A stretch of 64,000 nucleotides of DNA, taken from Opitutales bacterium. GTDB taxonomy: Bacteria; Verrucomicrobiota; Verrucomicrobiia; Opitutales; PNEW01. Shown here piece by piece: positions 42,001 to 45,000 of the stretch. The position numbers are program-made. The stretch covers positions 96,001-160,000 of the forward strand of contig CBDANS010000004.1 in assembly GCA_965197745.1 (NCBI GenBank). The letters run 5' to 3'. How positions within the stretch are numbered: the stretch's first letter is position 1; every line of letters starts with the position of its first letter.

Positions 42001-45000
42001 CTGAAAACCTCAATACCGAAGGCTCGGGCTCCATTCGGGCTACGCCCTCATTGCGCCCAAGCCTTGACTTCCTCTACCAACTTAACTTCAACATTAACCT
42101 CTCCAGACTAACTCTCCCGGTGGACCAGTTTGTGTAACCCGACCAGAGGGAAGGAGATGTTATTAGCATTGGATTTTGTTCATAGATTATTCGATCTAAT
42201 ACAATTTTGTGAATCTCCTGATAAGAATCTTGTAAACTAAGTCTAGTTGTTATTTTTAACCAAAATTTACAAAGCTTATATTTATTAGAAACGTAATAAC
42301 GTGTTGGACTATGGTCGTGACCACGAAAACTGGTACACTTGAAAAGTTAGTCTGGGTAACCTAGAAAGGACTCAGACAATGAAAGGCAAAAGATACACAA
42401 CTGAAGAGAAAATACGGATGCTGCGGCAGGCGGACAAAGGGAAAACGATCCTGGAAGCATGCCGCGAGAACAACATTAGCGAACAGACTTTCCACCGCTG
42501 GAAGCGTGAGTTTGGGATGATTGATGTCGACCAGGCCAAGCGGATGAAGGAACTCTTTGAAGGAGAACGCGCGGTTAAAACGGATGCTGGCGGACAAGAT
42601 GCTGGGGATAGAGATCCTGCAGGAGACCCTCGAAAAAAAACTGTAAGCCCTGGGCACAAGCGGCAAGTGGCAGAGAGACTTGTGGCTCGGGGCCAGTGTT
42701 CGATGCGAGCGGGGTGCCGGTACTTTCGGCTGCACCGTTCCACCTATGCGTATAAGGCGAAGCATCCGGATGCTTGGTTAATGAAACTGAAGGCGGCAGT
42801 AAGGCGGTTATCACGGCAATATGCCAGGTGGGGCTATCCGAAGATCACGAAGCTGTTGAAAGACGAAGGCTGGGAGGTGGGTAAACGTCTCGTGCAAGGT
42901 CTACGACGCGAACTGGGCTTGGCGATCCCCCAACGCAAGCCAAGACGTCGGGGCAGGGGTGTTTCCACCGGGCTGCCGACCAAGGCCGAACATCCCGGCC
43001 ATGTTTGGACCTGGGATTTTATCCACGATAAGACGGTCCGCGGTGGCAGTTTAAAAATGTTGACCGTGCTCGATGAGTACACCCGCGAGTGTCGAGTGAT
43101 CCATGTTGATCGCCATATCAATGCGGAAACGGTGCGCGGTATCATGCAAAAACTGCTTGCCCGTCATGGGCCGCCACAATATATTCGCAGTGACAACGGT
43201 TCCGTTCCGAGGAGCGAAGCGACGACATGCGAAGCCATTCATTGAAAAGGAATTGAGAGCCTGGCTAACTGCGATGAAAATCAAAACCCTCTATATCGAA
43301 CCAGGAAGCCCTTGGCAGAACGGATACATCGAATCGTTGCATGCCCGTTTTCGCGAGGAGTGTTTAAACCGTGAACAGCTATGGACTTTGACCGAAGCCC
43401 GCGTGGTGATCGAGGACTGGCGCTGGCTTTACAATAATGTCCGACCCCACCGCAGCCTCGGCAATATCACCCCACGGTGCTTCGCTGAAGACATTAATAC
43501 CGAAGGCTTGGGCTCCATTCGGGCTACGCCCTCATTGCGCCCAAGCCTTGACTTCCTCTACCAACTTAACTTCAACATTAACCTCTCCAGACTAACTCTC
43601 TCGGTGGACCAGTTTACGTAACCCGATCAGAATTTATATGAGACGCTGTTTTGCAATAACTTTTTCAATGTTTTTTTCTTTATTGGCATTTTCGAGTAGT
43701 GATGATTCTCTGCATGATCAGGTAAAAGAAATAAACGCTCTTCCTATTATCGATGTCGGTGAGGAATTCAGTGAACGGTATATCCCGTTTCATATCCATG
43801 ACTCCAAAGTTTTTCGACCTCCTGACGAGAGAGGTAGATTCGTGGTCATGTCAACATTTCCGAATATACCCGATTTTATCTGCGATTCGTGGTGCTATGA
43901 ATCGGATGTGTATCTTATTGAGGCACGATCGCTCGATGGCAGCAGAATAGAACTCCGGCATCGTTCCCGTAAATATCCGAATGTTATCGTTATTACCACT
44001 GTTACGCCCGAACCCGGAGCATTGGAATTCTCCGCCCGTATGGAATTGGAAAAAGAGGATATCGGTAGTTTGCCTGAGAATAATGTAAATCTCAATCTGT
44101 GCTGGCAACTCAAACGTGCTCCGGGATTTTGCAGCAAACCGGATCCATACCCTGATTTTATAAAGCGATGTTTCATTTTCACCGAAAAAGGACGGGTTTT
44201 CCTCGATAAAACTGAACGCCGTAACCTTCCCAGCCGTGTTGCAGATGATTTCCGCAATAATCCGCCATGGGTACAGTCGTATGTTGACACCTGGAAGGAG
44301 ATTCCGGAGGTTTCTCCGACAGCCTGGCAAGACAACTACAGCCCGGACAAGTATGTAACAACGGTTATAGGAGCTGTTTCCAGAGATGGAAAATATCTTG
44401 CAGCATTGACCAATGACTCGGCAACTTACATGGAACAGGCATGGCATGACTGCATGCACAATAATCCGTTGTGGCTACCTGCCGTTGCACCTCCTTCTGA
44501 ACGCAGGTGGCGGTTGAAACTTTATGTGATGGAGAATGATCCCGATGCACTGCTGAAACGGGCACATAAGGATTTTCCCAACATTCATCGATAGAATCAA
44601 ATCCAGTCTAAACCAAAGAAAGAAAAATAGCATATGAAAAGCTATTTCGAACAACGGCATGCAGTCGGATGGCCGCTTCGCGACCCCCGCTGATGCCGAG
44701 CGTAAGCAGAATCCGCTTATTCTAAGCTGCAGCAAACAATCGAGGAGGATGACTGCAACCGCTAAGCGTGTATCAAATTAATTCAGGCGATCCTTTCTCC
44801 GCGCCGGTCATACTCTCCCAACGGATCATAAAACCCCGGCCTATCGGTGAGCTTGATCCACACCCGCTGGGTTCTCTTCAGAACAATCCTTCCTAATCTC
44901 CTCAATAGTCCCTGACTACCATCGGGAAATTCAATAACGTATACCCAGTTATTAAGCGGGTCATCATTAACAATTACTGCTGAAATCCCAGGCCATTTTT

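Follow-up and report, generated by a model that had tools for sequence, protein, structure and literature searches.

A hairpin mini-module in IS3 transposase genes and in tRNA-linked, RtT-like repeats of an Opitutales bacterium

Rickettsia palindromic elements are small selfish repeats of 100-150 nt that occur in protein-coding and RNA genes, in frame and translated. Bypass inserts (T4 gene 60 and the 'byps' of yeast mitochondria) are stretches of 27-55 nt with hairpins, lying inside reading frames and multiplied within the genome. In intron homing and in guide-RNA-assisted retention of IS200/IS605 elements, the filled allele converts empty repeated targets while the flanks are little changed. 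For REP sequences, PMC3733652 presents a Y1 single-strand transposase as the proposed mobiliser of the GTAG class and gives none as known for the CGTC class. RtT repeats complete this background: in the literature searched, rttR was mentioned only as a stress-responsive RNA, and no report of RtT inside genes or as a mobile sequence was found. The module described below, 33-44 nt long, shares features with all of these.

A filled and an empty IS3 copy side by side

The window, a 64-kb stretch of the genome, contains two tandem IS3 copies of about 94-95% identity (Table 1); when they are aligned, copy 1 is gapped over 31 columns at the point where the D-N-G-S-E-F motif has its Glu codon. Copy 1 reads GGTTCCG-AG-TTTATTG at this place, and copy 2 reads GGTTCCG, then 33 nt (TT...CA), then TTCATTG. 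The module thus replaces the AG of the Glu codon, for a net gain of 31 nt, in agreement with the initial annotation, which had the insert replacing part of this codon. Pfam recognizes HTH_Tnp_1, rve and rve_3 in copy 1, whose gene is one of the four that are intact among the 73 full-length copies of two large clusters. In copy 2, the open reading frame 42379-43245 (288 aa, compared to 403 aa in copy 1) is broken inside the module: the frame is shifted, a stop follows 13 codons on, and the remainder of the gene runs on in a different frame up to 43621. The window locus was sought in the related genome G401 in order to compare the same IS insertion, and no match was found.

Table 1. Positions of IS3 copies, modules and the empty target in the window
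Feature	Position	Strand	Remark
Filled A1-lineage IS copy	5297..6614	+	1 nt from copy 1 outside the site
Module variant	6190..6222	+	Second hairpin GCAAAGC
IS3 element, A1 lineage (copy 1)	40859..42145	+	Empty site, intact 403-aa gene
Empty target G^AG^T	41751..41754	+	Codons TCC GAG TTT; C4:137745 + 6
Interrupted IS3-family element, A2 lineage (copy 2)	42312..43629	+	Inverted repeats TGGTCGTGACC... and ...CCCGATCA located
Mini-module replacing AG of Glu codon	43205..43237	+	Covariance model R1: 30.4 bits, E 1.8e-8
Filled A2-lineage IS copy	58343..59660	-	
Module identical to 43205-43237	58735..58767	-	

Anatomy, target and distribution of the module

The module begins with a conserved head, T-W-CCGAGGA, which is followed by a variable mini-hairpin and the block GACGACA; next come a second mini-hairpin, the invariant GCGAAGC, and a short tail whose last bases are CA. 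In copy 2, this layout is TTCCGAGGA, hairpin GC-GAA-GC, GACGACA, TG, a second hairpin GC-GAA-GC, and CCA. The first hairpin covaries, as had been annotated, and six paired variants were seen (GC..GC, AC..GT, AT..AT, GCT..AGC, CTGC..GCAG and TCCCGC..GCGGGA). Both mini-hairpins are mostly of the C-GNA-G type, which PMC13037366 describes as very stable in DNA and weaker in RNA. A hammerhead-like reading of GAUGAG was discarded, the remainder of that core being absent.

The insertion target is 5'-G^AR^Y, with the loss of 0 to 2 target bases. The consensus first proposed, YG^A(A/G)T, is retained for its G^AR part only, the preceding base being Y in just 6 of 9 distinct targets and the final base T or C; across these nine targets, the G before the cut is the only constant base. 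At all three IS3 sites, exact filled/empty pairs show AR replaced by T...CA. Further exact pairs that obey this rule come from a T-loop, from a D-loop (L046), from a T-loop with the module antisense (L098), and from a hairpin loop (L021) whose empty twin is only 60 nt away. The net lengths at sites 1, 2 and 3 (+31, +42 with an in-frame TGA, and +35) match those given initially. Since AR is swapped for a module ending in CA, removal of the net length would leave GCA (Ala) and not Glu. The number of target bases lost varies from 0 to 2 between junctions (L024 compared to the IS sites), and imprecise repair accounts for this better than a precise recombinase would; nor do the junctions agree with integron-like (G^TT), serine-recombinase or DDE models. 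When the nine empty targets were folded as DNA, those from tRNA fragments and from the hairpin loop had G^AR in a loop and the IS sites did not, so that a target defined by a hairpin was rejected. In one metagenome copy (L135), an 11-nt direct repeat lies on both sides of the module.

A strict regular expression retrieved 100 copies from the whole genome, and 121 when one mismatch per block was allowed, which is the number initially reported; as a control, the pattern read backward gave 0 matches, compared to 101 forward. With a covariance model, 130 matches reached E<=1. The 121 copies comprise 117 in IS3 loci, all on the strand of the gene and 0 on the opposite one, three tRNA-linked copies behind tRNA-Asn and tRNA-Gln, and one in an IS remnant with the flanks of IS site 3. 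Ordinary intergenic DNA of this genome holds none of the 121, a surprising absence if the element is active, given that its target has four bases.

The initial claim that the module occurs in only two contexts is thus correct for this genome, but it does not extend to the element itself. Searches of other Opitutales genomes and of metagenomes placed it in T-loop and D-loop fragments of tRNA genes, in a hairpin loop, and in IS5 and IS66 genes; among the 80 genome-contig matches listed and the 41 metagenome matches, about half are G+C-rich coding DNA that does not have the T-W head and the hairpin, and were judged by eye to be chance. Pfam confirmed the IS66 host, with an antisense module, and the IS5 host, with a sense module. 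Antisense modules were found twice, in one IS66 copy and in one tRNA fragment; the occurrence of both orientations in unrelated hosts indicates that insertion acts on DNA and not on the sense transcript. Overall, there are at least 10 distinct host contexts in several genera, all of them G^AR^Y. The subtype of site 2 recurs in Pelagicoccus hairpins and in IS66, and that of site 3 in a Lentimonas IS5, where the copy (+36 nt, in frame, no stop) is the only translatable one. These data support the view that the module is an evolutionary unit of its own, separate from the IS. The annotation as a site-specific mobile insert that is not part of the IS therefore stands as regards a separate unit, with its other hosts at G^AR^T/C and its two orientations; it is not borne out as regards transposition of its own in this genome, where each IS site has a single module subtype.

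Gain or loss of the module between IS copies, and its proposed spread

In the A/B lineage, 35 of 40 copies are filled and 5 are empty. For the 38 rows of the C/D set, the filled and empty numbers are 34 and 4 at site 1, 30 and 8 at site 2, and 9 and 29 at site 3. These counts replace the earlier ones (34/5 for A/B; 34/5 at C/D site 1; 15/7 with 17 unassigned at site 2) and leave intact the claim that filled and empty copies coexist within IS lineages. Among the A1 copies, 9 filled and 4 empty ones are within 0 to 5 nt of one another over 1279 nt, some IS copies identical over all 1279 nt differ solely by the presence of the module, and all four combinations of filled or empty state with a second polymorphism are present. 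This supports the conclusion that the module has been gained or lost between otherwise identical IS copies. As to the possible sources, no donor for the empty allele GAGTTT was found elsewhere in the genome, and filled donors with the same GCAAAGC variant are present. On the IS tree of 38 rows, the state is patchy and must have changed no fewer than 4, 2 and 6 times at sites 1, 2 and 3, respectively; in the second species (G401), all filled/empty combinations occur as well.

The modules themselves are identical (0 of 76 nt different) where the flanking coding DNA differs by 13-20%, and in the G401 copy L118 they differ at 0 of 114 nt while the flanks differ by about 10%. Because differences at 10-11 nt from the site-2 module remain lineage-specific, copying, if it occurs, would have to involve tracts shorter than those usual in gene conversion. 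There are also IS chimeras whose joint is at the module, which means that diverged IS lineages recombine there. In the C/D cluster, 0 of 33 genes are intact and copies are nearly identical, which points to a recent expansion of a lineage that has no intact gene. A purely inactivating passenger would fail to explain both this expansion and the conservation of the module above that of its flanks.

We propose, with a probability of roughly 45%, that the module is a small structured DNA insert that spreads with the IS and by homing-like copying. Each of the three IS3 sites would have been hit once, as suggested by the one subtype per site. The module would then have been multiplied by transposition of the IS, and empty copies would have acquired it through the copying of short tracts. 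Insertion may proceed through a single-stranded DNA intermediate, in keeping with the stability of the C-GNA-G hairpins in DNA, and joining might be effected by an enzyme supplied in trans, or by template switching at a stalled fork. Interrupted IS copies would be non-autonomous and dependent on the few intact genes. As to an enzyme, two Y1_Tnp (PF01797) genes were found in the genome (46.3 and 20.6 bits), with no module block within 900 nt of either; a reverse transcriptase (PF00078) was not found in this 92%-complete genome.

A different reading, which we consider unlikely, is that the module is a functional, intron-like or bypass-like part of the IS, kept by selection and removed or skipped to yield a full-length transposase. 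It would account for the dN/dS of 0.11-0.25 between lineages that both carry modules, alike upstream and downstream of the modules, although a recent arrival of the module would also give low values. It would likewise account for the identity of modules between diverged flanks, and for the full-length frame that is open, once modules are masked, in 26 of 35 (A/B) and 30 of 32 (C/D) module-bearing copies. No module-free C/D copy was found, and still there are two C/D clades, with 15 and 10 members, in which the copies hardly differ; moreover, the C/D inverted repeats are unlike those of A, the sole lineage with intact genes, which also favours a product made from interrupted genes. As read from the sequence, site 1 offers CCG for take-off and CCA for landing, which would restore the frame; no matching codons are present at sites 2 and 3, and insertions of 31, 42 and 35 nt would call for three different recodings, so that ribosomal bypass or frameshifting was rejected as a common solution. 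Translation restart fares no better, an AGGAG in the head followed by ATG occurring only at site 1, and out of frame.

Removal from RNA is not supported either, although the recent expansion of an IS lineage with no intact gene leaves it some probability. Three RNA-library runs and one DNA run were compared with window positions 42800-43620, as contigs only, which give neither levels nor proof that a form is absent. Within that limit, which makes it weak evidence, RNA-library contigs keep the module, as had been stated earlier together with the view that splicing is unsupported. In RNA run X15 (depth 22), one joint skips 33 nt and has AG in between. Since G-AG-T cannot arise from the filled form by one excision, this joint corresponds to an empty DNA allele, of A2 type, of another population; splicing was set aside as unsupported on these grounds. 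No Rfam ribozyme or intron matched in the region, and the splicing endonuclease PF01974, sought in the genome, is absent, whereas RtcB is present. Against any such removal also stand the Ala that it would leave at three conserved Glu positions and the antisense IS66 copy.

It is equally improbable, in our estimate, that the module is immobile. In that case its copies would be scars of a few one-off events, in which template switching or microhomology repair captured an RtT core from the tRNA-linked units, abundant and rich in hairpins as these are, and the scars would owe their later increase solely to transposing IS and to recombination between IS copies. The single subtype per IS site, the junctions varying by 0-2 nt, the frequent recombination indicated by chimeric IS and the failure to find a dedicated enzyme, the Y1_Tnp and PF00078 searches included, are all consistent with this, as is the resemblance of the A-lineage flank GGTTCCG to the GGTTCG preceding the module in tRNA units. 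However, such captures would hardly be expected to fall on G^AR^Y in all host contexts of several genera, nor to yield subtypes common to different genera and hosts; the IS modules differ in hairpin and linkers from the tRNA-linked modules of the same genome, and the strong sequence conservation is left unexplained. A cassette acting against or used by the IS, silencing transposase genes or giving truncated inhibitors and favoured by a lower transposition load, is very unlikely: it fits hosts that are transposase genes of IS3, IS5 and IS66, the rarity of intact IS3 genes and the high occupancy (35/40, 34/38 and 30/38), but any disruption would silence, conserved sequence and structure as well as tRNA-linked and hairpin-loop copies are unexplained, the Lentimonas IS5 copy is in frame with no stop, and no targeting machinery was found or, to our knowledge, is known for such a cassette.

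Whatever its origin, the module leaves most IS3 copies of the genome with no working transposase gene, which bears on the control of IS expansion, and its identical 33-nt patches let diverged IS lineages recombine into chimeras. If it truly moves, as we propose, few site-specific mobile sequences known in bacteria are as small, and it lives mainly inside other mobile elements.

Comparison with known small elements and with RtT repeats

The module resembles REP sequences and REPINs in size (20-40 nt), hairpins, high copy number and occasional location inside genes or other palindromes (PMC3733652). It differs from them in that two mini-hairpins of 2-3 bp stand in place of the GTAG/CGTC tag and the 8-9 bp stem, in being almost never extragenic in this genome, and in its defined target with loss of AR. 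Neither a tag beside a long palindromic stem nor a RAYT flanked by repeats was seen, and kinship with CGTC-REPs was rejected, nothing being common beyond the tetranucleotide GACG/CGTC. Terminal inverted repeats and a target-site duplication, which define MITEs, are both absent from the exact filled/empty pairs. IS200/IS605 elements insert on the 3' side of a tetra- or pentanucleotide that is fixed and left unchanged, in contrast with a target in which only G is constant and 1-2 bases are lost. Compared to homing systems, the module encodes nothing, is far smaller than known ribozyme or guide scaffolds, and has no linked nuclease. Like Rickettsia palindromic elements, it is a small repeat inside genes, but +31 and +35 break the frame and the 42-nt insert carries a stop, which by description sets the two apart. 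With bypass inserts it shares the small hairpin insert multiplied within open reading frames; matching take-off and landing codons are confined to site 1.

The closest likeness is to the rttR repeats of E. coli tyrT (RF00391), tandem units behind a tRNA gene that each end with the tRNA's own 3' end. Their stem is likewise built from the T-stem, and the order of blocks is the same: a GGAUGAGAA block and a hairpin GAAxC/GxUUC, a core with CYCGAG..., CGAC and GCGAAGC, and then AUCC. The tRNA-linked units of this genome lie 3' of the tRNA gene, copy its 3' end and have a closing stem derived from the T-stem, features that the IS copies do not have. This closing stem covaries with the host tRNA (GGCAGGAT/ATCCTGCC compared to GGCTAGGAT/ATCCTAGCC), 4 of its 8 pairs being changed on both sides. 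Against Rfam RtT, these units scored 23.7 and 18 bits, below the gathering cut-off of 45 bits, so that the rttR layout and the sub-threshold score given in the initial annotation were both found again. The IS insert gave no match to Rfam RtT at E<=10, and a second 'RtT' match (C7:528179) was dismissed as chance, being coding DNA with no tRNA. Conversely, model R1, built from Opitutales units, retrieved from L103 the three E. coli units only, on the correct strand, at 14.7, 10.9 and 10.4 bits (weak E, 0.007-0.24). In a Woeseiaceae unit (L087), the Opitutales core is joined to an E. coli-type tail. Two differences are the roughly double length of the core in E. coli and the make-up of the IS copies, which consist of the core alone, with no tRNA-derived stems.

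From these sequence comparisons, the likeness to RtT appears real for layout and sequence blocks, in both directions although below thresholds, and we assign the module, on the same basis, to the same family as the core of RtT-type repeats behind tRNA genes. The E. coli RtT repeats would thereby gain relatives in distant phyla, and their origin becomes testable, as duplicated tRNA ends whose T-loop took up a module. A wider reading, which we hold to be doubtful, is that RtT-type cores form a widespread, unrecognized class of miniature mobile DNA of about 35 nt with two GNA mini-hairpins, moving as single-stranded DNA, homing into G-AR-T in exposed loops of tRNA-gene fragments and into transposase genes, and kept by selection as the substrate of a dedicated trans-acting enzyme or because they are removed on expression. 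If such were the case, IS elements would have a parasite of their own, and the E. coli tyrT repeats, known for 40 years, would be fossils of the same process.

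Copies and structure of the module

A strict expression for the 33-nt insert under study, here called the module (head T-W-CCGAGGA, mini-hairpin, GACGACA, GCGAAGC, tail ending in CA), found 100 copies in the 4.45-Mb assembly. When one mismatch per block was permitted, the 121 copies counted in the initial annotation were reproduced, and its observation as a whole was confirmed with small corrections. IS3 loci accounted for 117 of the 121, all in the orientation of the gene and none antisense; three lay behind tRNA genes (two units at tRNA-Asn, one at tRNA-Gln), and one had the flanks of IS site 3. 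On the genome, a reversed-pattern control gave no match, compared to 101. A covariance model gave 130 matches at E<=1, the surplus being degenerate copies near IS loci and a few weak matches.

Two IS3 copies of the window are 95% identical across the aligned stretch and 94% across the IS proper. In copy 1 the gene is uninterrupted (403 aa; domains HTH_Tnp_1, rve and rve_3). Copy 2 has a net gain of 31 nt at the D-N-G-S-E-F motif, and its reading frame (42379-43245, 288 aa) reaches a TGA 13 codons on. These copies, one empty and one filled (that is, without and with the module), represent two sublineages and lie head to tail on the same strand (40859-43629), with 166 nt between them. A left inverted repeat of A2 type stands alone at 6650-6676 (minus strand), 36 nt beyond the point where the IS at 5297-6614 stops. 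The orfA of A-lineage copies exists in two forms (IS position 245-246, window ~41104). The canonical one, CTC-GAG-AAG (10 copies), encodes the leucine zipper in an orfA of 100 codons, followed after an A-AAA-AAA slippery run by an orfB of 354 codons. The other, CTC-TTTG-AAG (26 copies), has one additional base, which joins the N-terminal part and orfB in a single 415-codon frame and leaves the zipper out of frame. Copy 1 carries this fused form.

Modules, host elements and insertion points (coordinates count from the window start; L-numbers are loci from other genomes or metagenomes)
Feature	Position	Context	Junction or effect
IS3-family element, copy 1	40859-42145	directly upstream of copy 2	
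IS3-family element, copy 2	42312-43629	inverted repeats located	
Module in copy 2	43205-43237	33 nt	copy 1 here has AG of the D-N-G-S-E-F Glu codon
Module of a filled IS copy	6190-6222	within window	
Module of a filled IS copy	58735-58767 (minus strand)	within window	
Site 1		IS3 gene	G^AG^TTT or G^AA^TTC to G[...]CA-TTC
Site 2		IS3 gene	GATG^AA^TAT; net +42, TGA in frame
Site 3		IS3 gene	GATG^AG^TGT; net +35
tRNA-linked units	50-170 nt distance	behind tRNA-Ser, -Gln, -Asn, -Arg genes	
L046		D-loop of duplicated tRNA-Ser 5' fragment	TCG^AA^TGG
L098		tRNA 3' fragment, module on opposite strand	GGG^AG^TCG
L021		loop of small palindrome; empty twin 60 nt off	TGG^AG^CAT
L082		IS3 gene, fourth site	
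L042		IS5-like gene, DUF772 + DDE_Tnp_1	in frame, no stop
L075		IS66 gene, PF03050	module antisense

The first hairpin covaries and varies in length (GC-GAA-GC, GCT-GAA-AGC, AC-GTA-GT, AT-GCA-AT, CTGC-GAA-GCAG, TCCCGC-TTT-GCGGGA). The second hairpin is always GCGAAGC. Most of the hairpins belong to the C-GNA-G type, a mini-hairpin described in a review (PMC13037366) as extraordinarily stable as DNA, with a much weaker RNA counterpart, as found at single-strand initiation sites and as poorly bound by SSB. Because most hairpins are of this type, more stable in DNA than in RNA form, the module may pass through a single-stranded DNA stage.

Insertion rule and unrelated hosts

Exact filled/empty pairs were available at the three IS3-gene sites. 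At all three, the G of a Glu codon precedes the module, and a module ending in CA stands in place of AR, so that excision of the net length would yield Ala instead of Glu. An identical rule holds for the tRNA-linked units (tRNA TTCG-AA-TCCTGC, unit TTCG-[module...CA]-TCCTGC). Junctions are not wholly uniform: units of the L024 type lose 0 or 1 base, and Proteobacteria modules have T-loop bases before CCGAGG, where Opitutales modules have T-W. On a metagenome contig (L135), the module has ATTTT(T)GGCAGG on either side, the sole case resembling a target duplication.

Scans of genome and metagenome collections, in which about half of the matches listed were chance matches in G+C-rich coding DNA and were removed by eye, located the module family also in Pelagicoccus, Lentimonas, Ruficoccus and Puniceicoccaceae (Opitutales) and in Woeseiaceae. 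The occurrence of both orientations and of unrelated hosts argues for DNA-level insertion, with G, A, R and T or C as the short target, rather than for an RNA-level event. In the Lentimonas-type IS5-like gene (L042, L136, L174), the module adds 36 nt, in frame and stop-free; if translated, about 13 residues would replace a Glu of the DUF772 domain.

Gain, exchange and persistence in IS3 lineages

In the A/B cluster of IS3 copies, 35 of 40 are filled and 5 empty. Thirteen copies of its A1 lineage differ by only 0 to 5 nt over 1279 nt. Nine of them carry the module, always as the GCAAAGC variant, and four are empty; a second polymorphism is found in all four combinations with module state. No donor for the empty allele, GAGTTT, was found elsewhere in the genome, and filled relatives bearing GCAAAGC are present; the simpler reading of these sequences is therefore that A1 copies gained the module by copying from a filled relative. 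Such a gain would have come with a change at a single base 5 nt downstream. In the tree built from 38 C/D-cluster copies, state changed at least 4, 2 and 6 times at the three sites, and in a second species (G401), all filled/empty combinations occur at the equivalent sites. At the level of contigs, an A2-type sequence with an empty site (AG, depth 22) was found in an RNA-library run from another study, and only the filled A2 form in DNA run X1.

Both genomes contain chimeric IS elements whose junction falls precisely at the site-1 module, and the 33-nt module appears to be a recombination patch between IS lineages only about 60% identical. The chimeras at C7:1673354-1674642 of this genome and at L107 and L110 of G401 are D-type on one side of the site-1 module and A-type on the other, or the reverse.

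Strong module identity, low dN/dS and expansion of the C/D cluster without an intact gene do not fit a simple passenger. Between lineages D1 and D2, the modules show 0/43 and 0/33 nt differences, compared to 13% divergence in the 120 nt upstream and 20% in the 128 nt between modules. Similarly, the three modules (114 nt) of L118 in G401 equal those of the genome under study, where the best-matching copy to L118 is 89.9% identical. At site 2, flank differences 10-11 nt away from the module remain lineage-specific. Among filled lineages, dN/dS is 0.11 to 0.25 on either side of the modules, and masking these by NN opens a full-length frame in 26 of 35 (A/B) and 30 of 32 (C/D) filled copies. The only intact genes are those of the four A1 empties; the C/D cluster has none (0/33), yet it includes two clades, one of 15 and one of 10 copies, which are nearly identical and sit at different places, and its inverted repeats are unlike those found in the A lineage. 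These features could reflect a very recent and precise spread of the modules, an intact master copy that was lost or is missing from the assembly (genome completeness 92%), or transposase production despite the modules.

Neither a reverse transcriptase (PF00078) nor a splicing endonuclease (PF01974) was found in this 92%-complete genome. RtcB, present in many bacteria, is encoded, as are two Y1 transposase-like genes, near which no module pieces were found. Related to the RtT core, the module stands as a structured, site-selective insert distinct from the IS, and its state changes between identical IS copies. The initial annotation had proposed a very small site-specific mobile insert that is not part of the IS. 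This proposal is supported in part: a separate site-selective unit is upheld, also by its unrelated hosts, and autonomous movement is possible.

Relation to RtT repeats

The IS insert matched no Rfam family, and searches of the literature on RtT/rttR and on small palindromic inserts of transposase genes yielded no account of the element (including 10.1101/2024.07.17.603846, PMC3733652 and PMC13037366). The tRNA-linked units had been likened to RtT, the tRNA-linked repeats of the E. coli tyrT operon. With them, the Rfam RtT model reaches 23.7 and 18 bits (cut-off 45), aligning GGAUGAGAAC on the 5' and GCGAAGCG...AUCC on the 3' side. In the other direction, a model from 13 units matched, within the K-12 locus L103, the three E. 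coli units and no other sequence, with 14.7, 10.9 and 10.4 bits. The likeness thus stands as reciprocal and positional, with scores below thresholds. The best-scoring unit, in the tyrT-tyrV spacer (L103:1060-1189, minus strand; 14.7 bits), ranks above the annotated rttR repeats and has GAGAACC...GGUUCG-AUUCGAG, nearer the Opitutales form than theirs.

The 5' segment of the tRNA-linked units (GGAT-GA-GAACC; GGATTCGAACC in L024) is complementary to both halves of the split T-arm, forming two helices that clamp the module flanks. In helix 2, 95% of cells are paired; helix 1 tracks the host tRNA, with 4 of 8 pairs changed on both sides. The tRNA-Asn and tRNA-Gln loci resemble each other in the spacer from tRNA to first unit (TWCGACGYGCT...CTTGCTCATRACAGG; C6:355467-355531 and C5:236461-236530), so the repeated element may measure about 150 nt and carry the module 3'-terminally. 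The last 14 nt of tRNA-Ser(GCT) (C7:491636-491725) are copied 206 nt downstream, where there is no module; this copy may mark the distal boundary of an integrated element.

The E. coli K-12 unit consists, in order, of the T-stem 5' strand, ATGAGAAGC...GG, TTCGA, a core from CTCGAG holding CGAC and GCGAAGC, AT, the T-stem 3' strand, and the acceptor 3' strand with CCA. A Woeseiaceae unit (L087) combines the Opitutales core with an E. coli-like tail. The order of parts in the Opitutales tRNA-linked units is that of the E. coli unit; the IS copies hold the core alone.
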